Virus record (IMG/VR): IMGVR_UViG_3300027770_000029
Length of the DNA stretch: 64,000 nt
Reading direction: 5' to 3' (one strand)
Source of the DNA: a virus
The notes under the pieces are model-generated. The model was given only the letters and a program-made list of their open reading frames with translations. It was not told where the DNA came from and made no database searches. Below are positions 12,267 to 24,168 of this stretch, piece after piece. The position numbers and the translations under genes were made by a program. Positions within the stretch are counted from its first letter, which is position 1. Every line of letters begins with the position of its first letter.

Positions 12267-13022
12267 GTGATTTGTGAGAACTGTTCAGCAGAACACTCGG
12301 GAAGCTATGGGAGTGGAAGATTTTGCAATTCCAAGTGTGCAAGAGGTTATTCTACAAAGACAAAGCGAGCTGAGATCAGCAAGAAAGTCTCAGCATCCAT
12401 TAGACGTGCCCATGGAACGGACTTGCTGACATGTCCGTCCTGTCAGTCCCAGTTCTCATGGGATCATTTTGCGACTGCAGCTGAAAAACTTGGCACAAAG
12501 GAAACTAAGTTTTGCAGCAAGACTTGCAAACGAGCAGCGAAAGATTCTCAAAATTGTTCTCCTGTTTTTCGACAGAAAATGTCAGATGCCGCGGTCAGGA
12601 GACTAGAGATGGGAGACGTTTGGTTTGGGAAGCAGAATCACATTGAAGCTTTCGGAAAGTCGATAAGGTGTGACTCTCTTCTTGAGAGAAGCTTTGTTCT
12701 AATGATGTCAAGAAACTCACTCATCAAAGATGTAAGAAGATCTGGCGTTTGGATTCCCTACGCGGATGACGAAATCAAGCGACAATACAATCCTGACTTT
12801 GTTGTTGAGTTTTCTGACGGGACTCTTGCAGTCGCTGAAGTCAAATCTGAAAGAATAGGAAAACGCGACGTCTGGGAAGATTACAGAAAGAAGTCAGAGA
12901 TCAAGCGCAGACTCCTTGAGGATTACGCAGCTTCCAACGACATGAAATTGATCTGGTACACTCAGAAAACTTCTCCACAAACTTATAAAGAAGTTTGTAA
13001 ATGCATTTCACCTGTAGTATAG
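12267..13022 (+). mobile_element. Free-standing endonuclease: Zn-ribbon N-terminus plus TnsA-N-like PD-(D/E)XK domain
   Basis: CENC...GSGRFCNSKC; YNPDFVV...AEVKSE; AAGGAG RBS inside a hairpin. Confidence 0.75.
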
Positions 13023-13061
13023 TATCAATGTGGTTGGAACAAACCAAGCACTCTTCGGAAC

Positions 13062-13138
13062 GTCCTCATACCGGCTTCGTTTCCTAAACGAAGTACCGTA
13101 ACTGGATTATGCTGGTTCGAGTCCAGCTGAGGACGCCA
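13062..13138 (+). tRNA. Atypical tRNA-Arg(CCT)-like RNA with no canonical D arm
   Basis: Acceptor GTCCTCA/TGAGGAC, G73, CCA; T arm GCTGG-TTCGAGT-CCAGC; stem CTTCGT/ACGAAG with loop TTCCTAA. Confidence 0.6.
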
Positions 13139-13337: not shown

Positions 13338-13609
13338 GCCCGATTAGCTCAGTTGGTTAGAGCAACGGACTGTCAAATGGCAGCTTTGGTGGGTAACCAC
13401 CATCGAAAAGATCGTAAATTCGGTGAACTCCCTGTCGAAAGACGAGACAACGCCGAGCCAAGCCCGAAAGGGAAGGTGTAGAGACTGTAATCGATCCATC
13501 CCACCGGGATGATGGCACAGTCCAGACCACGAACGGTGAGAACCGGCGATGAAAATCGAAGTGGCACGTAATCCGTGGGTCCCCTGTTCAAGTCAGGGAT
13601 CGGGCGCCA
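13338..13609 (+). tRNA. tRNA-Asn(GTT) split by a group I intron (exons 13338-13373 and 13569-13609)
   Basis: Joining exons gives ACGGA-CTGTTAA-TCCGT, G73, CCA. Confidence 0.9.
13374..13568 (+). mobile_element. ORF-less group I intron (195 nt) at anticodon position 35/36
   Basis: P AAATTCGGTGAA, Q AACGCCGAGC, R GTGTAGAGACT, S GCACAGTCC; terminal G; 5' exon ends in U. Confidence 0.88.
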
Positions 13610-13615
13610 TATCAA

Positions 13616-13707
13616 TGAGACCGAGCCTGGCGGGCACACCCGACGGGGTGCAGGTTGGTTCAATTCCAACGGGGTCAAACGTGGTTCGAATCCACGCGGT
13701 CTCATCA
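13616..13707 (+). ncRNA. tRNA-like RNA with two T-arm-like hairpins
   Basis: Outer stem TGAGACCG/CGGTCTCA; GTTGG-TTCAATT-CCAAC and CGTGG-TTCGAAT-CCACG. Confidence 0.55.
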
Positions 13708-13709
13708 CT

Positions 13710-13823
13710 TTCCCACCCCAGACCGCCGGATAACCGGCACCACTCGCAACCAGTGGTATCTGCGTTAGCACGGTCAGAAAGTTTGAGGCTTCAGTCTCAT
13801 TCGCGCAGATTAAGGGGTGGGAA
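13710..13823 (+). ncRNA. Unidentified multibranch structured RNA
   Basis: 10-bp closing stem TTCCCACCCC/GGGGTGGGAA; hairpins GCCGG-ATAA-CCGGC and ACCACT..AGTGGT; ATCTGCG/CGCAGAT. Confidence 0.55.
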
Positions 13824-13847
13824 TTAACAAACAACAGCGGAGACAAA

Positions 13848-14153
13848 ATGATTTACGAAATCGTGATCGTTGCCGACACAAACGATGCTGACTACGTCAC
13901 AAAGATAAGTGACATTACTCCTGGCGAACTCGAACGATTTACACCTCTGATTGCAGAGATTGCAAAAGTCAAGCACTACAATTGGGACACTTCGGCGTAT
14001 GGAGATGATGAAGACAAGCCAGAGATCATGTATTCTCAGTTTGCCGAGCTGGTGGAGGAATTTGGGGAGTTTGTCCCGCACGGCGAACACGGTGTTCACA
14101 CCATCAAGTCTATTGTTTATTACGAAAAGCCCACAAAGATTGTTCTTCTTTAA
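13848..14153 (+). CDS. Hypothetical protein
   Basis: GGAGA RBS, 101 aa. Confidence 0.8.
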   Translation: MIYEIVIVADTNDADYVTKISDITPGELERFTPLIAEIAKVKHYNWDTSAYGDDEDKPEIMYSQFAELVEEFGEFVPHGEHGVHTIKSIVYYEKPTKIVLL

Positions 14154-14162
14154 ATAAAAACC

Positions 14163-14191
14163 ATGCAAACCGCCCGCGGGCATGTTATAAT
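14163..14191 (+). promoter_or_regulatory. Promoter ATGCAA-N17-TATAAT upstream of tRNA-Ile
   Basis: Extended TG, 17-nt spacer. Confidence 0.75.
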
Positions 14192-14258
14192 AAGAACATA
14201 AGCTGGATCGGATCGGACGCCACTAAGAATCTGCTCATTAGATGACCACTACCATTAT

Positions 14259-14334
14259 AGGCGGGTAGCTCAGCGGTCAGAGCAGGTGGCTTATATCCAC
14301 CCGGTCGTGGGTTCAATCCCCACCCCGCCTACCA
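14259..14334 (+). tRNA. tRNA-Ile(TAT)
   Basis: Cloverleaf, GGTGG-CTTATAT-CCACC, A73, CCA. Confidence 0.9.
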
Positions 14335-14342
14335 ATGCCAAT

Positions 14343-14443
14343 GATCGTAAGGCCTGATTCCATTAGATGGGTTCTCCTGAATTAACAGGGCAATACTATG
14401 ATCCAGCTAATGGAATCCGATCTGACACTCTGGAAAGACAGAG
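14343..14443 (+). ncRNA. Unidentified structured RNA
   Basis: GATCG/CGATC, 11-bp GATTCCATTAG/CTAATGGAATC, CCTG-AATTAA-CAGG, then CTCTG-GAAAGA-CAGAG. Confidence 0.45.
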
Positions 14444-14451
14444 AACTTCTT

Positions 14452-14528
14452 CTCACCATAGCTCAGCTGGATAGAGCAGCAGCCTTCTAAGCTGCGGGTC
14501 ATTGGTTCGAATCCAATTGGTGAGGCCA
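14452..14528 (+). tRNA. tRNA-Arg(TCT)
   Basis: Full cloverleaf, CCA. Confidence 0.93.
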
Positions 14529-14625
14529 TTTCGTTGAAGGTTTACGATGAAACTTCTATCAGTAATTTACCAGCTTGTGAGAGCGATTCACCGCGCTCTG
14601 AGGTGCTTCGGAAAGTCAAAGTAGA

Positions 14626-14646
14626 GGGGGCGTAGCTCAGCTGGGA
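14626..14646 (+). pseudogene. 5' fragment of a canonical tRNA-Ala
   Basis: GGGGGCGTAGCTCAGCTGGGA stops abruptly at the end of the D loop, followed by the AT-rich HNH leader. Confidence 0.7.
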
Positions 14647-14697
14647 AAACTTCAAATTTGATTGCAATTTATTTGCTCTCCCAGAATAATTAGGTTT

Positions 14698-15273
14698 ATG
14701 TGGACATGCAAACATTGCAAGAATAATTTTGAGTTTGATTCTTTGTCTGATAAAGCTAATCACTCTAGATGGTGCGAAAAAAATCCAAAAAAAGAAAACA
14801 CTGAGAGCTTAAAACTCGCGCAGTCACTTTCAGTAGAAAAAAGACTTGGGCCGATTCAAGAATTTGAAGTCTTTTGCGAGACTTGCTCCAAACTCTTTAT
14901 GATTAAAGAGAGAGCAAAGAAATTTCCGTCTAAAGAAAAATACTTTTGCTCAAGAAGCTGCGCAAATTCTTTAGGCGGAAAAGCAAAATCAGAAAAATAC
15001 AGGATCAATGAACCGAAGCATTACGTAGCTATTGCGTGGAAATACCATGATAAAGTTTGCTGCGTTTGCGACGAAAATAAGATTGTAGCTGTTCATCATT
15101 GTGATGAGAATCACGACAATAATGATCCAAAAAATCTAGTTCCTCTTTGTCCAACTCATCATCAGTACATGCATAGCAGATACAAAATCGAAATACAAGA
15201 TAAAGTTCAGAAATACATCAATGATAAATGGGCTGTAAGTGTTGTCGGGGGCACACGGGCTTTGCAAGCCTGA
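14698..15273 (+). mobile_element. HNH homing endonuclease (free-standing)
   Basis: Zn ribbons; CCVC...VHH...NHDNN...LVPLCPTHH; AT-rich. Confidence 0.85.
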
Positions 15274-15304
15274 AGGACCGGTTCGATTCCGGTACGGTCC
15301 ACCA
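15230..15304 (+). tRNA. tRNA-Ala(TGC), divergent, overlapping the HNH 3' end
   Basis: GGGCTGT/ACGGTCC with G3:U70, loop TTTGCAA, CCA. Confidence 0.88.
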
Positions 15305-15342
15305 TTCAACAATCGCACGAGAGTGCACAATCAAGGAGAAAA

Positions 15343-15651
15343 ATGCGTAACTTCACGATCTCTGCTTTTGCAGTCGCAGCTCTGGCCCTTGCTGGCTGCC
15401 ATCATGACGATGACAAGGACGACGACACTGTTACCTGCCCTCAGGATACTGCTGGTCAGGACACTGCCGTGACCGATCCGGTTGACACCGCGGACACCAG
15501 CGGTGGCGATACTGCCGATACTTCGACTCCGCAGGATACGGCGTCCCAGGATACCGGGGCTGACACTGGTGCTGGTAGCGACACCGGCGCAACTGATACT
15601 GGCGCTTCCAGCGACACTGGTTCCGGCGGCACCGACACCTCGGCTCCCTAA
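15343..15651 (+). CDS. Lipoprotein with Asp/Thr/Gly-rich low-complexity tail
   Basis: Signal peptide with LAGC lipobox; DTG/DTA repeats. Confidence 0.85.
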   Translation: MRNFTISAFAVAALALAGCHHDDDKDDDTVTCPQDTAGQDTAVTDPVDTADTSGGDTADTSTPQDTASQDTGADTGAGSDTGATDTGASSDTGSGGTDTSAP

Positions 15652-15659
15652 CAGATTTT

Positions 15660-15751
15660 GGGAGAGCTGCTAGGGCGGTGGTCTAGCGACGAGCTGTAAA
15701 CCCGTTCCCTCAGGGCAAACACTGTCAGTTCGAATCTGACCTCTCCCACCA
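15660..15751 (+). tRNA. tRNA-Tyr(GTA)
   Basis: Long variable arm, loop CTGTAAA, CCA; one A.C mismatch in the anticodon stem. Confidence 0.85.
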
Positions 15752-15755
15752 TCGA

Positions 15756-15832
15756 AGGACTATAGCTCAGTTGGTTAGAGCTAGCGTTTCATACACACTC
15801 GGTCACTTGTTCGAATCAAGTTAGTGCCACCA
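15756..15832 (+). tRNA. tRNA with CAT anticodon (Met or Ile2), degenerate
   Basis: Canonical D and T arms and CCA; mismatches at 1:72 and 3:70 and one in the anticodon stem. Confidence 0.6.
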
Positions 15833-15833
15833 T

Positions 15834-15908
<75 letters not shown>

Positions 15909-15912
15909 CATT

Positions 15913-15989
<77 letters not shown>

Positions 15990-15995
15990 CATGAC

Positions 15996-16079
15996 GCGCG
16001 GATGGTGGAATGGTATACACGCAGGTCTTAGAAGCCTGTGCCTGACGGCTTGAGGGTTCAAGTCCCTCTTCGCGCACCA
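15996..16079 (+). tRNA. tRNA-Leu(TAG)
   Basis: Type II cloverleaf, CCA. Confidence 0.93.
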
Positions 16080-16146
16080 CCTATAAAATTAGAAAGTTGA
16101 TTAACCTGAATCAATCGTATGAGTATATTTAGAACCGAGGGTTCGA

Positions 16147-16929
16147 ATGTTTTCATGCGACTGTGAGTTTTTGACAGATTCTCTTAGAACTTTAAGGAGT
16201 CATTACGCAGCAAATCACGGCAGCGGAATCTCTTTCTTTGAAAAGTTCGATGACGTAATCACTTCCAATTGGGAAGATTTCCCACAAAGAGCGATTCGCT
16301 CGTTCTTACTTTGGAAGTCAAATTACAAATGCACGTCATGTGGATACGAAAAAACACGAGAGTGCGGTGCTTCGATACTTGAAGTTGATCACATCGATGG
16401 AAATCATGATAATAACTCTTTAAGTAACCTTCGCATTCTTTGCCCAAACTGTCACGCTCTAACTCCAAAATATCGAAATTGGTCGAACAAAGGAAACGAA
16501 AAGCATGCTTCATCACTAAGACCGGGTAATGCTGGTTATAATGAAAGGCACAAGACCCAAGAAGCGAAGAGATTTGAACGACAACTCAAAATTGAAACGA
16601 AGAAAGCTCAGACGACTGAGATAAAACGTGATAAGAAGAAAGTTTTTCGAGAGTTTGAAAAAACTAAGATTAACTTTCAGGAAAGGTTTATTCAAAAAGT
16701 GAATGAGCTTCATCAATCTAAAGAGATTGACTTTTCAAAGTATGGATGGGTTCAGTTATTAGCTGAACGTTGTAATGAACATCCACAAGTCGTCGGTCGT
16801 AGAGTTCGCTCACTAATGCCTGATTTTTATCTTGAACATTGCTTCAGCAGAAGATATAATCATTACATCAAGAATATGGAGAGCATCCGGCCAGATGAGG
16901 AAACAGCCTTGAAAACTGTCGCGGGTTAA
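16147..16929 (+). mobile_element. HNH homing endonuclease (free-standing)
   Basis: CTSCG...LEVDHIDGNHDNN...LRILCPNCH. Confidence 0.88.
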
Positions 16930-16966
16930 GAGCCCGTTGTGGGTGCGAGTCCCACGCTCTCCGCCA
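16878..16966 (+). tRNA. tRNA-Ser(TGA), overlapping the last 52 nt of the HNH ORF
   Basis: GGAGAGC/GCTCTCC, G73, long variable arm, CCA. Confidence 0.88.
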
Positions 16967-16970
16967 TCTT

Positions 16971-17044
16971 GCCCCCTTAATTTAATGGTAAAATACCTGT
17001 TTTGTAATCAGGCTTTGTTGGTTCGATTCCGACAGGGGGCACCA
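16971..17044 (+). tRNA. tRNA-Thr(TGT)
   Basis: Cloverleaf, CCA. Confidence 0.9.
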
Positions 17045-17048
17045 CACG

Positions 17049-17080
17049 GCCGGCATCTAATAATAGATGCCGGCTTTTTT
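17049..17080 (+). terminator. Rho-independent terminator
   Basis: GCCGGCATCTA-ATAA-TAGATGCCGGC followed by T6. Confidence 0.85.
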
Positions 17081-17114
17081 GATGATAGCAATCAACAACA
17101 AAGGAACAATCAAC

Positions 17115-17462
17115 ATGAAGCTCGCTAATGTCCTACTTCTTCTTCCTCTCCTCACCCTTGCAGCATGCGGCGGAGATGATGACAAGACCAGCACCGTTGA
17201 TACCGCAGCTTGCGGTGAGGGTGATACCAGCTCGGTCGATACTGCTGTGACTGTCACCTGCACCGACGCCACGGGCACCTACGACGTCGGCGCCACGTGG
17301 ACCTGCGAGGATGGCTGCAACTCCTGCTCTTGCCAGGAGGATGGAACGGTCGCTCAGACCGAGATGGCGTGCCCTGATACCGGTGACACGGGCGGTGAGG
17401 TTCCCCCTGACACTGGCTCCTCTGATACGGGTTCCTCTACCGACACCTCCACCGAGGGTTGA
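17115..17462 (+). CDS. Lipoprotein with pacifastin/VWC-like Cys module and DTG repeats
   Basis: LAAC lipobox; CEDGCNSCSC...ACP. Confidence 0.85.
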   Translation: MKLANVLLLLPLLTLAACGGDDDKTSTVDTAACGEGDTSSVDTAVTVTCTDATGTYDVGATWTCEDGCNSCSCQEDGTVAQTEMACPDTGDTGGEVPPDTGSSDTGSSTDTSTEG

Positions 17463-17466
17463 TAAA

Positions 17467-18456
17467 ATGATCGCGATTCTTTCCCTGCTCATCGCATGCT
17501 CCGATGCCAGCAACGTTGCGGAGCCCGTAAATCCGCAGATCACGGATGCTGTCACGGTTGATCGTACTAAGCTTGGAGCGTTCCAGCCGCTCCCGGAAAA
17601 CTTCTTCATTGCGGGAGCGGAGCCTTCTCCTGATCTGATCTTTCTCGGTCGCCGTCTCTTCTTTGAGACCCAGCTCTCGGCCGACGCCAACATGTCATGC
17701 TCCACCTGTCATAATGTTGCGAAGGACGGCGCTGATGAGCATAAGTTCTCCCCGGGTCACAAGATGACGCCGGCAGGTCGTAACTCTCCGACGGTCTTCA
17801 ACGCAGCAGGACAGGCTTCCCAGTTTTGGGACGGTCGAGCAAAGACGGTCGAGGAGCAGGCACTCGGTCCTATCCTCGCTGCGGGTGAGATGGCGATGCC
17901 GGATGCCGAGACCGTTGCCCGCGTCCTCAAGGAGGATCCCACCTACGTTGTTGAGTTCGCGAAGGCATTCCCGGGTGAGAAGGATCCCCTCACTTTTGAG
18001 AACGTCGGTGTCGCCATCGGTGCCTACGAGCGAACGCTGGTCACACCCTCCAGGTGGGACGCTTTCCTCCAGGGTGACGATGCCGCTCTCACCAACGACG
18101 AGAAGCGGGGCCTCAATACCTTCATGGAGGTCGGTTGCACGGCATGTCATAACGGCACTCTTCTCGGTGGTGCGTCTTTCATGAAGCTCGGTGCTGTGGA
18201 GCCTTGGCCCAACCAGGCAGACCAGGGGCGATTCGGAGTGACGGGACAGGAAACCGATCGGATGGTCTTCAAGGTGTCTTCCCTTCGCAATTCCACTGAG
18301 ACGGCACCCTACTTCCACGATGCATCTTCCGAGAGCCTGGGCGCAGCCGTCTACATGATGGGAAAGCACCAGCTTGGTAAGTCTCTCACCCCTGAGCAGG
18401 TGACTGATATTGTGAGCTTTCTCGGGTCCACAAAGGGAAATCCAGCTTCCTTCTGA
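17467..18456 (+). CDS. ccp: Di-haem cytochrome c peroxidase (CCP/MauG family), probably a lipoprotein
   Basis: CSTCH and CTACH haem motifs, RNSPTVFNA, QFWDGRA, FKVSSLRN. Confidence 0.93.
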   Translation: MIAILSLLIACSDASNVAEPVNPQITDAVTVDRTKLGAFQPLPENFFIAGAEPSPDLIFLGRRLFFETQLSADANMSCSTCHNVAKDGADEHKFSPGHKMTPAGRNSPTVFNAAGQASQFWDGRAKTVEEQALGPILAAGEMAMPDAETVARVLKEDPTYVVEFAKAFPGEKDPLTFENVGVAIGAYERTLVTPSRWDAFLQGDDAALTNDEKRGLNTFMEVGCTACHNGTLLGGASFMKLGAVEPWPNQADQGRFGVTGQETDRMVFKVSSLRNSTETAPYFHDASSESLGAAVYMMGKHQLGKSLTPEQVTDIVSFLGSTKGNPASF

Positions 18457-18461
18457 ACTTT

Positions 18462-18548
18462 GGAGACGTGGGTGAGTGGCTCAAACCAGTCCCTTGCTAA
18501 GGGACCACCGGCGAAAGTTGGTCGCAGGTTCGAATCCTGCCGTCTCCG
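18462..18548 (+). tRNA. tRNA-Ser(GCT), CCA not encoded
   Basis: Type II cloverleaf, loop TTGCTAA, G73. Confidence 0.92.
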
Positions 18549-18708
18549 TACTAACGGCTCCTGATCAGAGATCGTATACACGGGACCATGCTCGCATGGC
18601 GAAATCCCGTCCAAATCGTAGGTTGGCACAGTTCGCGGCTCTGGAGGTATTCCAAAAGCCGCTTTTCTTTTATCTGATACAGACTTAACGGCATCAGGAC
18701 AAGAACAA

Positions 18709-19008
18709 ATGGCAATTCACATATCAGAAATCAAGCTCCGCCAGATCATCAAAGAAGAATTGTTTCGTGAGTCGAAGGATAACGACCCTCCGGCTGAAAT
18801 TTCTTACGAAGTTGAGGTCCCGCACCGGCCGCATGATCATGATGAGGAGATCGCTGATGCTATCCAGAAAGCTCAGACGAAAGCTATCGACGATCACAGC
18901 GCGAGATATGATATAAGCGATGATCACGGTGATGGATATAAGAAACTTGGGAAGACAAAGGGCGGAAAAATTCGATACAAGGTCTACTTGTCCCATATCA
19001 AGAGGTAG
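18709..19008 (+). CDS. Acidic protein with N-terminal ISEIKLRQIIKEE motif
   Basis: Motif present; RBS upstream. Confidence 0.85.
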   Translation: MAIHISEIKLRQIIKEELFRESKDNDPPAEISYEVEVPHRPHDHDEEIADAIQKAQTKAIDDHSARYDISDDHGDGYKKLGKTKGGKIRYKVYLSHIKR

Positions 19009-19020
19009 CAGGAGAAAATT

Positions 19021-19593
19021 ATGAGCTCTACACCGACTCTCCTTCGCCAGCTTATTCGTGAGAGCATCTCTCGACCCAAAATTTACGTTCTTGTCGGACC
19101 TCCCGGAGTCGGAAAGTCGCACTGGGTTCGACAGAACGTGCGTGACGCTTATATCATCAGCAGGGATGACATTGTTGATGCAGTTCGAGCTCCTCACGGA
19201 ATCAAATACAATGACACGTTTGGCCCAGCGGGTCGTCACATCTCAAAGGAAGTTGATAGAGAATTTCGTAATCGTGTCGCGGGAGCAGCCCAGTCGGGTC
19301 AGGATATAGTCGTTGACATGACAAATATGGGGGTCGGTTCCAGAAAGAGCGCTCTGAAAGCCATTGCGGGACGTGAGAGAGAATATGAGAAGATTGCTGT
19401 CTTCTTTGACTATCGCGGGATGGAGAGCAAAGTGCAACGATCGGTCGATCTCCGTGCTGCAGAGCTCCAGGACAAAAACTTGAGCCCTGCAATCATGCAA
19501 AGCATGTTTAATCGTCTGGAACTACCGACACGAGAAGAGGGTTTCGATGATATTATTGTCGTTGACCCGTCAGAGACATTAAATCGTCCCTAG
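19021..19593 (+). CDS. P-loop kinase (AAA_33/polynucleotide-kinase-like) with N-terminal LLRQLIRES motif
   Basis: GPPGVGKS Walker A; IISRDD; IVVDMTN. Confidence 0.85.
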   Translation: MSSTPTLLRQLIRESISRPKIYVLVGPPGVGKSHWVRQNVRDAYIISRDDIVDAVRAPHGIKYNDTFGPAGRHISKEVDREFRNRVAGAAQSGQDIVVDMTNMGVGSRKSALKAIAGREREYEKIAVFFDYRGMESKVQRSVDLRAAELQDKNLSPAIMQSMFNRLELPTREEGFDDIIVVDPSETLNRP

Positions 19594-19622
19594 CTCCTCC
19601 TATAGTTAGAAGAGGAGCGACA

Positions 19623-20804
19623 ATGAACAGAATCCCACGTTTACTACTTTTCGCCCTTCTGCTGCCACTCGAGAACGGCTGCATGGATTCTGAGCTTCAT
19701 CCGGTTAAAGATCCGCCTCCGGATGGGACGCCTGCGATCCAGGTCGACCCGGAGTCAATTGACTTTGGGATCGTTCCAGCGGGTGAGAGCTCAGCTAGCA
19801 TCATAACGATGTCATCGGTGGGTTCTGTCGCTCTCAATGTGACAGCGATGCAGATAGGAGAGGGACGAGAGACGTTCACGCTCCTTGAGCCATTGACGGG
19901 AACATATGAGCCTGATGATTCTGTTGAGCTAACGATCACTTACAATTCAGATGGGAGTGAAACAAGCGGTGTCCTTCAAATCCTTTCTAACGATCCTAGC
20001 CATCCTAATACTAGTGTGCCTCTGCTAGCTCACGCAGAGATCAATGTCGATACGGGAGAGACAGGCGATACTGCACCGCCACTTTCGCAACCCGTTGCAG
20101 TCTGCTCCGTTGATCCGATTGAGGTGGAGGCGATTCACGGATCAGCCGATTGGGTCGGAAATTCTTCATACGATTCAGATGGTTCAATCGTTGATTATCG
20201 CTGGACGTTGATCTCGTCACCAGCGGGTGCAACAGCAACAACGCCAGCTGGAACTGCGAATCGTCGTAACTTTGTTCCTGATGTCGCTGGAGAATACATC
20301 GGAGAGCTTGTAGTGGTCGACAACGATGGCCTAGAGTCGGAGCCGTGTCAGGCGACCTTGAACGCCACCGCTGGTAGCGGTCTCTGGATCGAGATGTTCT
20401 GGACCTACTCGGGAGATGACATGGACCTTCACCTCCTGGATGACGGTGGGGTCCTGACGGGAACATCCGACTGCTATTACGCGAACTGCACCTGGGGCGG
20501 ACTTAACTGGGGCGCCGCAGGCACTGCTGACAACCCCGTTCTCGATCTCGATGACATCATGGGAACTGGTCCCGAGAACATCAACATCGACTCACCGGCA
20601 CGAGGGACCTACACGGTCTACGTGCACGACTACCCAGGTTCCGTCTACATGGGTCAGAACGACGTTACGGTGAGTGTGTATCTTGGAGGCTCTCTCATCT
20701 GGACTGACACTAGAAACGTCAACTCGGAAGGTTGCTATGAGCCGTTTGTTGAAGTCAACGTTCCTGGAGGGGCTACGACCGATCTTTACGGCAGCTGTAG
20801 ATGA
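19623..20804 (+). CDS. Secreted or lipoprotein with Ig-like (choice-of-anchor D and PKD-like) and YfaP/DUF2135-like domains
   Basis: Signal peptide; IDFG; SYDSDGSIVDYRW; DMDLHL...DDIMGTGPENI. Confidence 0.75.
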   Translation: MNRIPRLLLFALLLPLENGCMDSELHPVKDPPPDGTPAIQVDPESIDFGIVPAGESSASIITMSSVGSVALNVTAMQIGEGRETFTLLEPLTGTYEPDDSVELTITYNSDGSETSGVLQILSNDPSHPNTSVPLLAHAEINVDTGETGDTAPPLSQPVAVCSVDPIEVEAIHGSADWVGNSSYDSDGSIVDYRWTLISSPAGATATTPAGTANRRNFVPDVAGEYIGELVVVDNDGLESEPCQATLNATAGSGLWIEMFWTYSGDDMDLHLLDDGGVLTGTSDCYYANCTWGGLNWGAAGTADNPVLDLDDIMGTGPENINIDSPARGTYTVYVHDYPGSVYMGQNDVTVSVYLGGSLIWTDTRNVNSEGCYEPFVEVNVPGGATTDLYGSCR

Positions 20805-20946
20805 TTTTTAAGATTGTCGACTACTGGTTCAGGCTCTTCATGTGGATGCTGCTTGATCCGATGGGTCGAACATTTTTCTGGATCTCAGATGTCACGTTGC
20901 TAATTGCGTGCGCATCATTTCTGTGGTACACAAAGGATGAAAAGAA

Positions 20947-21174
20947 ATGAGATGGAGAACGTCAGGTGAGTCACCAGCCGGGAGGCATAAACTCTCGGAG
21001 CCGCGCGCGAAGACAAAGGCACCACATGACCCGACTTATGGTCACGAGCCTGACATGCTTGACGCGCCGGGTCTCATGGTGGAACCTGACGTTCGTCGTA
21101 AGATCGCAAAATACTTCAAGCAGATGAGGCTTCGCGAGATGATAGAGGAAATTATCGATGAGATGATTAGGTGA
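20947..21174 (+). CDS. Small hypothetical protein with C-terminal LREMIEEII motif
   Basis: ORF 75 aa; start uncertain. Confidence 0.55.
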   Translation: MRWRTSGESPAGRHKLSEPRAKTKAPHDPTYGHEPDMLDAPGLMVEPDVRRKIAKYFKQMRLREMIEEIIDEMIR

Positions 21175-22201
21175 AGTGACCTAGATCAGCCAGAACAAGC
21201 TCACCTGTCTCCGGCCTTAGCATGATGTTGTTTCCGTGAACGTCAGACGGATTGATGTTCATTGACTTTAGATCCTCAAGTGCGCTCACGAGTTCCCGGA
21301 CTCCCTTGATTCTTCCAAGCGGTCCAGGGACTTCTTTCGTCGGCTCTTTCGGAACCGCTCGACGTCCGAGCAAGCTCGTTATTGAGCTCATTATCATCTG
21401 ATTCAACGACTGTATTGAACCAGGTCTGGTGATTCCAAGCGCGCGGCACCAGAGCTCAACTTTCTTTCCAATCGCCGATCTTAGTCCGTCAATGGCCGAG
21501 AGCATTATTCCACTACCTTGATCTGTTACCTCAGGGTCATAAGATGCGGAGACCAGCATTTTCTTAAGTCTGCTGAATTCTTCGGCTGGGTCTGATTTTC
21601 TTGGAGCACCGGCAATCGCTGCGTCGACCGCGCGCTTCGATCTGCTCATTGCCTCATCAACGACTGCTGAGAAAGCTTCACGATCGCTAACAAGAGAGCC
21701 TAAAGAGTGGATGGATCGAGTCGCTGGCTGGGTAATGAGATCGAACATATTTCCCGGTAGCTCCTCGAGTCTCTCCATGACAATGACACCCAGATTCTCT
21801 GGACTTCCAAAGTCATCAGTTGGAAGCGGAACTCCCAGGTCCTCTAGCGTTCTGATCTTATAGATCACTGGCATATGGCGAGCAACCCGGTCTGGTAGTC
21901 TGACAATCGCTTGCTGGGCGCGTTTGTAGCTCTCGATCTCATTCAGGGGCTGAATCTTAAGAATTACGTTTTCATTTCTCTCGTCGACGGCTGAGAATGT
22001 GTAAGCTCCGTACAGCCTCTTGGATCTTGACAGGTATCGAACGTCGGCCAATCCCATCTCTTCTGCGACATCTTTGGCCACACTTTCCATCTTCGCTCGT
22101 CTCTGCACAAACGGATCTGCTGGGACATGGTGGGCTGGTAGTGGCGCGGTGGCGTCCGATTCCAGCATCAAGCGTATCAGCTTTCTTAGGTTTCCGTTCA
22201 T
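21167..22201 (-). CDS. Protein-kinase-like protein with N-terminal LRKLIRLMLE motif
   Basis: VILKI, IVMERL, DVHGNNIM, ADLG motifs; ATG at 22201 after ATATTTA. Confidence 0.8.
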   Translation of the reverse strand: MNGNLRKLIRLMLESDATAPLPAHHVPADPFVQRRAKMESVAKDVAEEMGLADVRYLSRSKRLYGAYTFSAVDERNENVILKIQPLNEIESYKRAQQAIVRLPDRVARHMPVIYKIRTLEDLGVPLPTDDFGSPENLGVIVMERLEELPGNMFDLITQPATRSIHSLGSLVSDREAFSAVVDEAMSRSKRAVDAAIAGAPRKSDPAEEFSRLKKMLVSASYDPEVTDQGSGIMLSAIDGLRSAIGKKVELWCRALGITRPGSIQSLNQMIMSSITSLLGRRAVPKEPTKEVPGPLGRIKGVRELVSALEDLKSMNINPSDVHGNNIMLRPETGELVLADLGHFT

Positions 22202-22255
22202 CTTGTTAAATATTCGTTGCAAATTGAACTCGTCACCAGTATAGTCTTTCTGTTG

Positions 22256-22331
22256 GCCCCGGTAGACCAGCGGCAGAGTCAGGAGACTTAAAATCTCTGT
22301 AGGGCGGGTTCGAATCCCGCCCGGGGCACCA
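22256..22331 (+). tRNA. tRNA-Leu(TAA) with a short variable loop
   Basis: GCCCCGG/CCGGGGC, loop CTTAAAA, 5-nt variable region, CCA. Confidence 0.85.
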
Positions 22332-22387
22332 CTCTGTTTATAGTCTCAGTAAAAGAGTTAAAATTAACGTCTCAAAGGAGAAGCACA

Positions 22388-22495
22388 ATGAAGTTCGTCA
22401 TTCTTGCAGTTCTCGGTTCTCTCTTCCTCGGTGGTTGCACCGGTGGTAAGGACGATACCGGCACTGATACGAGCTCTGCCACTACGGCCGAGTGA
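22388..22495 (+). CDS. 35-aa lipoprotein (MKFVILAVLGSLFLGGCTGGKDDTGTDTSSATTAE), not in the ORF track
   Basis: AAGGAG RBS, LGGC lipobox, DTG tail, terminator follows. Confidence 0.75.
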   Translation: MKFVILAVLGSLFLGGCTGGKDDTGTDTSSATTAE

Positions 22496-22517
22496 TCCTA
22501 AAGCTCAAAATAGAGCG

Positions 22518-22545
22518 ACGGCTGGCACTGGTTGCCAGCCGTTTT
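22518..22545 (+). terminator. Rho-independent terminator
   Basis: ACGGCTGGCA-CTGGT-TGCCAGCCGT followed by TTT. Confidence 0.7.
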
Positions 22546-22571
22546 CATATTTACGAGCGGAGAAAATTAGC

Positions 22572-23168
22572 ATGCTAACTGCAATTGGCGACGTGATGAG
22601 GAAGTGCTACGATCGTGGATGGATCACAAATCGTGACGGAAATATCTCACTGTGTCGTAATAACTCGAAGACTCTGTACATCACGCCTTCAGGCTGGAGG
22701 AAGACTATCATCCACCCAGAGCATATCGTGAAGTGCAAGCTTGTCGATGACGGCGTAATCGCTCCTTCCGGACAAACCGCAAGCGGTGAGCTTCATATGC
22801 ACTGGCTCATTCAGAAGGATTTCACAAAAACCCGCGCCGTCGTTCATGTTCACGCGACCCATGTGGTTGCAGCAATGTTTGCAGGTTGGGACCTTCAGGA
22901 GCTCGCCAGACAGTTTCCAGAAGTGAACCGGTACACCCGAGTAGGGCCTAACGTACCTGCCCTGCCGGCAACATCACGTGAACTGGGCGATATGACTGGG
23001 GTGCATCTGGGGTGCCTACCGGACGGGTCGCTCCAGTATGATATCGTAGGGCAAGCGAATCACGGGGTCTGCGCAGTCGCTGGTGATCCGTGGTCAGCTT
23101 TTGAGCACGTTGAGCGTCTCGATCACATCTGCGAGATTGTGCTAAAAAGTGGCGTGAAGCCGAAATAA
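22572..23168 (+). CDS. Class II aldolase/adducin family protein
   Basis: DGNIS, ITPSG, SGELHMH, VVHVHATH, NHGV. Confidence 0.88.
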   Translation: MLTAIGDVMRKCYDRGWITNRDGNISLCRNNSKTLYITPSGWRKTIIHPEHIVKCKLVDDGVIAPSGQTASGELHMHWLIQKDFTKTRAVVHVHATHVVAAMFAGWDLQELARQFPEVNRYTRVGPNVPALPATSRELGDMTGVHLGCLPDGSLQYDIVGQANHGVCAVAGDPWSAFEHVERLDHICEIVLKSGVKPK

Positions 23169-23218
23169 AGATCACAAATTCGAACTCAGGTTAATATCTA
23201 AAACAAGAGGATTAACTT

Positions 23219-23899
23219 ATGTTCGAATGCGAAAATTGCTCAATCTCTCATGATGCCTCGTATGGAAGCGGAAGATTCTGCAGCGCAAAATGTTCGAGGT
23301 CATTTTCGACTAGATCGAAGAGAAAAGAGATAAATGAAAAAGTCTCAAAGTCTTTGTCTGGTAGAGAATGTCCCAAAGATTTTGAGTGTGATGGGTGCGG
23401 TAAAAAATTCGGTTCGAAGATGGCTCTGATAGGGCACAAGTCAAATTGCGATAAAAATGATGCAAAGCTTGAACGCGAAAGATATAATCAAAACAGATTG
23501 GAAGTCAAGCTAAATGCTTCATTTGAAGAACTTTCAATCATCTTGAAAAGAGAAAAAATTTTCCGTGAACAATCTGGTAAATGTAACCATTGCGGATTAG
23601 AAAACTGGCTCGGACAAAAAATAACTCTAGAGCTTGAACATCGCGATGGAAACACAAATAATAATGACAGATCGAACCTAGAGCTTCTTTGCCCAAATTG
23701 CCATTCTCTAACTCACACGTGGAGAGGCAGAAATAAAAGCAAAAGTAACTCTAGAAAAAGAGTGAGTGATGAAGATCTTTCAGAAGCACTAAAAAGCAGC
23801 TTGTCAATTCGTCAGGCGCTGATTAAAGTTGGTTTAGCTCCTAAAGGTGCAAACTACTTCAGAGCGAAAAAGTTAAAAGAAAATTTAACGGGCCTTTAG
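23219..23899 (+). mobile_element. HNH homing endonuclease with N-terminal Zn ribbon
   Basis: CENC..GSGRFCSAKC; LELEHRDGN..NN..LELLCPNCH; stop codon lies inside tRNA-Lys. Confidence 0.88.
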
Positions 23900-24168
23900 C
23901 TCAACTGGCAGAGCAAGGGACTTTCAATGGAAGCTTCAGGGAGAAATCTCTGTCGAACACAGCCCAAATTCGGGGAACTCTTAACAGGTAATGCTGATGA
24001 CAATCCCGAGCGAAGCCCGAAAGGGAACGTGTAGAGACTAGAGGGGCTGCACCCTAACGAGAAAGACGAGGGTGATGGTATAGTCCAGACCACGAACTGC
24101 AAAGGCGACGAAAGTCGAAGTGGTATGTAATCCCAAGGTTGTGGGTTCGATTCCCACAGGGCCCACCA
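23890..24168 (+). tRNA. tRNA-Lys(TTT) split by a group I intron (exons 23890-23924 and 24128-24168)
   Basis: Joined loop CTTTTAA, A73, CCA. Confidence 0.9.
23925..24127 (+). mobile_element. ORF-less group I intron (203 nt) at anticodon position 35/36
   Basis: AAATTCGGGGAA, AATCCCGAGC, GTGTAGAGACT, GGTATAGTCC; terminal G. Confidence 0.88.

Follow-up and report, generated by a model that had tools for sequence, protein, structure and literature searches.

The means by which group I introns come to occupy new sites are not settled, and the stretch of DNA analysed here (64,000 nucleotides of IMG/VR virus record IMGVR_UViG_3300027770_000029, hereafter the window) poses it in a compact form. By its proteins the window is assigned to a large freshwater jumbo phage genome, and two of its transfer RNA (tRNA) genes, tRNA-Asn(GUU) and tRNA-Lys(UUU), are each split between positions 35 and 36 by a small intron devoid of an open reading frame (ORF). 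An earlier reading based on the letters of the window (the sequence-only reading) proposed that one intron had spread between these genes by adapting its internal guide sequence to each anticodon. Comparison with relatives leads us to favour, with moderate confidence, the view that both elements are near-neutral, optional group I ribozymes gained separately from a large phage tRNA-intron pool in which switching between tRNA-Asn and tRNA-Lys genes has been repeated.

Split tRNA genes and intron junctions

The two genes are organized as follows (the basis of each assignment is given in brackets):

13338-13373, + strand: tRNA-Asn(GUU) 5′ exon, ending at U35 (sequence; intron-free allele in L376).
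13374-13568, + strand: predicted ORF-less group I intron (IC3-type, 195 nt) at tRNA-Asn 35/36 (family hidden Markov model (HMM), covariation, exact skip in three runs, orthologue 95% identical in G006).
13569-13609, + strand: tRNA-Asn 3′ exon with encoded CCA (spliced-tRNA call).
23890-23924, + strand: tRNA-Lys(UUU) 5′ exon, ending at U35 (sequence; identical intron-free gene in L262).
23925-24127, + strand: predicted ORF-less group I intron (IC3-type, 203 nt) at tRNA-Lys 35/36 (Rfam RF00028, covariation, orthologues L275 and L283 93% identical).
24128-24168, + strand: tRNA-Lys 3′ exon with encoded CCA (spliced-tRNA call).

Excision of the introns in silico yields a canonical tRNA-Asn(GTT) of 77 nt and a canonical tRNA-Lys(TTT) of 76 nt, both called by ARAGORN and both with CCA encoded. 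Each intron is preceded by U35 and has G as its terminal base; the boundaries and the common 35/36 site given by the sequence-only reading are exact. Three independent natural controls fix the junctions. The intron-free tRNA-Lys of L262 is identical to the predicted spliced product and lies in the same aldolase - tRNA-Lys - Gln - Glu region, the intron-free tRNA-Asn of L376 is one base off the predicted spliced sequence, and contigs from three public runs omit exactly 13374-13568 (195 nt). A 158-nt contig over the unspliced Asn 5′ junction may be DNA and was not used as evidence. No sense ORF is present in either intron (195 and 203 nt), as had been claimed, and neither thus carries a homing endonuclease gene inside it; long antisense ORFs across both introns were treated as spurious.

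With default settings ARAGORN called 14 tRNAs in the window, neither Asn nor Lys among them, and its intron mode miscalled both split genes (as SeC and Asp). A reading of the Lys gene as tRNA-Ile(TAT), obtained when the 3′ G is placed four bases early, was excluded by homology and by the intron-free allele. Standard tRNA finders miss such split genes, so that phage tRNA inventories under-count Lys and Asn, and this under-count matters for studies that set phage tRNAs against anticodon nucleases. Within the window no other split tRNA and no other intron of the same family was found.

Ribozyme anatomy

The elements of the core on which the class assignment turns are located as follows:

13380-13383, + strand: internal guide sequence of the Asn intron, with pairs G13380-U35 and C13381-G34 (sequence, fold, covariation).
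13481-13523, + strand: Asn P7 (13481-13487 with 13518-13523; guanosine-binding site), enclosing P3′ and P8 (alignment, covariation).
23930-23933, + strand: internal guide sequence of the Lys intron, with pairs G23930-U35 and A23931-U34 (sequence, fold, covariation).
24034-24086, + strand: Lys P7 (24034-24040 with 24081-24086; guanosine-binding site), enclosing P3′ and P8 (alignment, covariation).

Both introns have U at −1 engaged in a U.G pair, a terminal G, and a covariation-backed P3-P7 pseudoknot accompanied by P4-P6 and P8. A P1-P9 model applied to a 12-row alignment leaves 96.3% of the cells paired, with two-sided changes in 25 of the 48 pairs; none of 500 shuffles scored as high and slid controls gave 27-44%. 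The paired share is 94% in P3, 97% in P4, 100% in P7 and 90% in P8, compensatory changes being found in each. In P7 no variation is seen in the guanosine-binding pair, and the helix ends in A-U in the Lys intron and in G-C in the Asn intron. P7 leads straight into P3′ without P7.1/P7.2, and in an alignment comparison made by eye the J6/7 and P7 motifs match the Azoarcus seed. With the Rfam model Intron_gpI (RF00028) the Lys intron reaches 56.6 bits, above the cut-off of 50, and the Asn intron gives no match; the orthologue of the latter in G006 (95% identical) scores 40.4 bits (E 5e-10). The family HMM, in whose seed both introns were included, gives 145 bits for Lys and 115 bits for Asn. This evidence identifies both elements as putative group I introns with a compact Azoarcus (IC3-type) core, and from their anatomy we infer that both work as Azoarcus-like ribozymes and splice.

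The guide described by the sequence-only reading, matched to each anticodon and with a U.G at the splice site, is confirmed by the sequence and by precursor folds. Exon CUGU pairs with guide GCAG in Asn and exon CUUU with guide GAAG in Lys, each with the U.G and one extra C-G pair. The resulting 5-bp P1 helix is present in the unconstrained minimum-free-energy fold of both full precursors, and the U.G at the 5′ splice site is found in 12/12 aligned introns. During splicing the guide would pair with the last four exon bases of the precursor (P1), free guanosine would attack after U35, and the terminal G would set the 3′ site, whereby the anticodon loop is restored.

The intron family in phages and bacteria

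Retrieval with one core motif gave 63 viral loci and a genome scan gave 120 bacterial rows; a scan aimed at Asn/Lys 35/36 added at least 80 rows and inflates the Asn/Lys 35/36 counts, which are not to be read as frequencies. From the core-motif, targeted and genome scans 184 distinct tRNA introns were mapped. Phages carry them in tRNAs for Leu, Lys (at 34/35 and at 35/36), Asn (at 35/36), Met, Arg, Thr and Ser. Those of bacteria lie mainly in tRNA-Leu (34/35), tRNA-Met/Ile (33/34) and tRNA-Arg (36/37), and there are single cases at 35/36 in tRNA-Lys, tRNA-Tyr and tRNA-Gln. When retrieval was not biased by site, tRNA-Leu(UAA) was the most frequent host (21/44). That the two window introns belong to one family is borne out, a single motif and a single HMM gathering both. 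The supposed restriction to U35-U36 loops does not hold: the family is also found at 33/34, 34/35 and 36/37, and in Leu, Met/Ile, Arg, Thr, Ser, Tyr and Gln tRNAs. The core blocks listed as shared are indeed present in both introns, but they are conserved family-wide and give no sign of a special pairing of these two.

Across the family introns at 35/36 the guide tracks base 34, as the sequence-only reading would have it, in 50 of 51 cases (C for G34 in 37/38, A or G for U/C34 in 13/13). This table is partly circular, since the intron caller itself demanded P1 pairing; for most Asn rows the guide could not be read from HMM columns by themselves. The independent support for guide covariation is therefore the fixed position of the guide before P2 together with the shuffle control. 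P1 pairing is obligatory for any group I intron, and guide covariation alone says nothing about history.

Several members broaden this picture. Introns in tRNA-Lys at 34/35 (L037, L045, L055, L002) cluster, well supported and with up to 87% identity, with introns at 35/36 of the same tRNA (L078, L091, L098, L099), a clade that is read as a one-base shift of the insertion site inside the same tRNA. Eight others (L010, L019, L022, L031, L046, L048, L051, L061) lack tRNA exons and lie apparently in protein genes (capsid-like by eye), so the family apparently spans tRNA and protein genes. The cultured E. coli jumbo phage Turkey5 (Escherichia phage, PQ471516; L403:755-984) carries an unannotated group I intron at 36/37 of tRNA-Met(CAU) with an HNH gene directly after it; phage TH47 matches the same stretch, and the intron with its HNH gene is a possible laboratory model. 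In the huge-phage genomes L401 (LR756501, 735 kb) and L402 (LR756511, 595 kb) family introns occupy tRNA-Leu(UAA), and in L402 an HNH ORF seems to sit inside the core, just before P7.

Probable separate gain of the two introns

In its narrow form the sequence-only reading has the intron copied between these two genes in this phage lineage, by reverse splicing or ectopic repair, and its guide then re-tuned. The two introns do share their site and have near-identical anticodon arms, a single group of 15 rows rich in 35/36 introns contains both (support 93/93), and the Lys intron is third-closest of 183 to the Asn intron. Within-genome copying may also occur in the family, co-resident pairs in L058 and L027 being closer to each other than to almost any outside partner. 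Yet the window pair is 70.9% identical, which lies at the level of the family background (66.3±4.9% for random cross-site pairs, 18% of which are as close) and corresponds to the 75th and 85th percentile of the comparison sets. Closer relatives of each are found elsewhere. The Asn intron is 22nd of 183 by closeness to the Lys intron, whose nearest relatives are Asn introns of other phages (L038, L114, L020 and L056; 79-82% overall). From P4 to P7 the Lys core is 92-94% identical to these four, versus 70% to the window Asn intron, and the core of its orthologue L275 is 94-96% identical to the L038-type Asn introns. The Asn intron clusters with Asn introns of other phages (support 99/99). The comparison thus speaks against the two introns being each other's close relatives.

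Their presence varies independently as well. Both are present in the window; in G006 the Asn intron is present (95% identical) and tRNA-Lys is intron-free; neither intron is present in G001 and G002; the Lys intron is also found in L275 and L283 (93% identical orthologues). Most likely, then, the Asn and Lys introns were gained separately, and a copy from one window gene to the other is in our view improbable. We also rejected the idea that a whole intron-bearing gene was remodelled from Asn to Lys through an anticodon change, since the two spliced tRNAs share 62% identity and a matching intron-free allele exists for each.

The same distribution bears on why the introns persist. The sequence-only reading had suggested that they shield precursors from anticodon nucleases; in a wider form, they would be kept for hiding the anticodon loop from host tRNases (PrrC-like) or the gene DNA from rival tRNA-targeting nucleases. 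tRNA-Lys(UUU) is the PrrC target (PMC10264068), and the four endonuclease-like genes of the tRNA cluster (see below) make immunity at the DNA level plausible. However, the intron-free gene encodes the very same mature tRNA, an unspliced precursor cannot decode, most alleles among relatives lack the introns (8/11 fetched tRNA-Lys loci and 13/14 Asn loci with the common 5′ exon), and the commonest host in the unbiased scan is tRNA-Leu(UAA). Shielding is left unsupported by these data and protection in either form is very unlikely to be what maintains the introns.

Switching between tRNA-Asn and tRNA-Lys genes

Judged by eye from the acceptor stem and the discriminator, the exons of the L038-type relatives are those of tRNA-Asn. 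Lys and Asn cores that are nearly identical are hence found in tRNA bodies of different type, and therefore the intron or its core moved. In a 24-row set the approximately unbiased (AU) test rejected a single clade for the Lys-35/36 introns (p=1.8e-5) and for the Asn introns (p=0.014). We consider Asn/Lys switching to be real and recurrent at the family level, whether by guide change or by core exchange. Spread by guide adaptation, as initially proposed, accordingly survives as Asn/Lys retargeting at the family level (92-94% cores, AU tests) and fails for this pair.

In the reading that we favour, introns would have moved more than once between tRNA-Asn and tRNA-Lys genes inside the phage pool. 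For a move at 35/36 one guide base would have to change, to C opposite G34 or to A or G opposite U34. A base that pairs with G34 does not pair with U34 as well, so this route passes through a mismatched intermediate; phage tRNAs are probably dispensable, so that poorly matched intermediates could persist.

Such an intermediate is avoided if the exon and the P1 guide stay fixed as an address and cores are swapped by recombination between intron-bearing tRNA genes of co-resident or co-infecting phages, an account that differs from the favoured one only in the switching route. It is common for a phage to carry two or three family introns, and the identity of co-resident pairs averages 0.72 versus 0.67. 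P4-P5 of the Asn intron is 97% identical to the Lys intron L091 while its flanks match the Asn intron L079, the informative sites clustering with p=5e-5 before correction. The Lys intron, so similar to the L038 Asn group in its core, is only about 80% identical to it overall. Nevertheless the triplet was picked post hoc among 3,828 possible parent pairs, which brings the corrected p to about 0.19, and sites that pair with each other do not vary independently; applied to the Lys intron, the clustering test gives p=0.25 and 0.047. P2 diverges fast even between orthologues, and the divergent 5′ part consequently needs no recombination. We regard exchange of cores as a rather unlikely origin of the pattern, although the mosaic look of the Asn intron keeps it in play.

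Endonuclease genes of the tRNA cluster and mobility

Four free-standing endonuclease-like genes lie in the tRNA cluster:

23219-23899, + strand: HNH endonuclease gene (226 aa), candidate mobilising nuclease (homology; absent from intron-free relatives).
12267-13022, 14662-15273 and 16147-16929: three more endonuclease-like genes (one TnsA-like, two HNH-type).

The stop codon of the HNH gene at 23219 falls at tRNA-Lys positions 8-10. Its HNH domain is 53% identical (E 1e-20) to an ORF within the P1 loop of a related tRNA-Leu intron, Pfam returns only a weak zinc-finger match for its product, and 69 of 80 homologues lie at most 900 nt from a tRNA gene. Among close alleles, two have both HNH gene and intron, one has the intron without the HNH gene, about six lack both, and the HNH gene never occurs there without the intron. 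The HNH gene next to tRNA-Lys would fit collaborative homing. Under the explanation that we favour, spread most likely took place at the DNA level: nucleases of the cluster, such as this HNH protein, would cut during co-infection and repair would copy the nearby intron. We tentatively extend this to a more specific proposal, in which tRNA clusters act as a staging ground where an ORF-less intron changes address by HNH-driven repair between tRNA genes followed by correction of one guide base; the 94-96% Lys/Asn cores (L275 or window versus L038-type) would then record recent ectopic movement.

A number of points weigh against the favoured explanation. A sister relation of the window pair, which also speaks for copying within the lineage, is not rejected (AU p=0.15 and 0.80), given the shortness of the sequences. 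Trees from about 190 columns are weak, and those of 176 and 82 rows were unstable, a constrained tree outscoring the free one; the 24 rows of the AU-test set were hand-picked after identities had been seen. Automatic calls of long introns (L025, L039, L095, L117) that were wrong or had doubtful guides were left out of the trees. Mosaic segments in the introns violate the tree model and could produce this pattern in a different way. Public RNA runs, of which small shares were searched, were uninformative on splicing. The association between HNH gene and intron amounts to about p=0.08 (computed by hand), with alleles that are not independent, and distant HNH homologues lie upstream of intron-free tRNAs, including tRNA-Lys (L293, L365). 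Since the sample is tiny and such homologues adjoin intron-free tRNAs, intronless homing that drags along an intron 35 bases away would be as likely as collaborative homing.

Other endonuclease-related features were noted. Related introns of 550-850 nt do hold ORFs in the P1 loop. P1-loop ORFs of the 35/36 introns L101, L109, L239 and L095 are non-HNH by blastp, and by eye these are PD-(D/E)xK-like in Lys and Tyr and LAGLIDADG-like in Asn. The first 60 residues of the TnsA-like protein are 49% identical to the HNH protein at 23219, a common N-terminal part that likely reflects a domain swap. At 23801-23829, in the 3′ end of the HNH gene and 60 nt before tRNA-Lys, there is a sigma70-like promoter match (consensus match only, 9/12); this predicted promoter may replace an intergenic promoter region lost on HNH insertion.

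Genomic setting

The assignment to a large freshwater phage is based on phage-family protein matches, on a helicase that matches those of jumbo phages at about 30-34%, on IMG/VR relatives that are 68-82% identical across long stretches and whose complete size is estimated at ~340 kb, and on the freshwater origin of the source runs.

The tRNA cluster extends over about 13.0-24.4 kb. Default ARAGORN overlooked in it a probable tRNA-Ser(UGA) at 16877-16966 and a tRNA-Arg(CCU) at about 13060-13138, the latter syntenic with called genes in relatives. Directly behind tRNA-Asn, at 13617-13707, lies a tRNA-shaped element with an acceptor-like stem, a 5-bp arm with a 4-nt loop where the anticodon loop is expected, and two tandem T-arm-like hairpins. 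It has a weak Rfam match to mascRNA (E 0.71), is missing in G006, and no relative was found among the fetched loci.

Comparison with known systems

The class of the elements and both insertion sites were already known. Williams 2020 (bioRxiv 10.1101/2020.01.27.920355) described 21 classes of intron-split bacterial tRNAs from a survey of bacterial and archaeal assemblies only, with a seed alignment that includes Lys.4Ug and Asn.4Ug. The window introns agree with these two classes in isotype, loop position 4 (= 35/36), U at −1 and terminal G. The Lys intron has the same tRNA, site and P4/P6/P7 motifs as the Lys.4Ug seed (Mpe6.Lys.4Ug), with P3′ close after P7. It differs in residing in a phage and in being 64-65% identical to the bacterial Lys-35/36 members recovered here (Sphingomonas cremea L144, UUU; Pyrinomonadaceae L168, CUU), and in being nearer to phage Asn introns. 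The Asn intron likewise shares tRNA and site with the Asn.4Ug seed (Williams 2020; Pam37.Asn.4Ug). Unlike the window Asn intron, which has no insert and is IC3-like, the Pam37.Asn.4Ug seed has a P7-P3′ insert and is read as IA-like. Work by Nakagawa et al. from 2025, which going by its title concerns a new insertion site in Patescibacteria, reportedly describes Asn and Asp introns at 35/36 that splice in vitro and belong mostly to subgroup IA.

In size, compact core and short P1 with extension the window introns resemble the Azoarcus pre-tRNA-Ile(CAU) intron (205 nt; PMC13168695) and the classical IC3 introns (Leu.3Ug, fMet.2Ug, Arg.5Ug), and one motif and one HMM gather all of these together. 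These known introns differ in lying in other tRNAs, at 33/34, 34/35 and 36/37, and in being chromosomal, in genes needed by the cell.

For mobility, the closest parallels are the free-standing homing endonucleases of phage tRNA clusters (T4 SegB) and collaborative homing (Hausner 2014, PMC3984707); unlike in the latter, the window HNH family usually adjoins intron-free tRNA genes, and intronless homing fits at least as well. The same review noted that experiments had given no direct evidence for the reverse-splicing route, and that in phages group I introns had until then been seen only in protein genes, although phage tRNA genes are many. Our literature search, with most subscription journals outside its coverage, turned up no publication on phage tRNA genes split by group I introns, and this setting seems to be undescribed in print. 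It has practical advantages: phage tRNA introns are common and have natural empty alleles, and Lys and Asn versions whose cores differ by 4-8% are a ready pair for testing what a change of target requires. Lak megaphages have ‘enigmatic’ introns in their tRNAs, left unclassified (Devoto 2019, PMC6784885), which also lie in phage tRNA anticodon loops; unlike those, the window introns have the predicted anatomy of full group I ribozymes.

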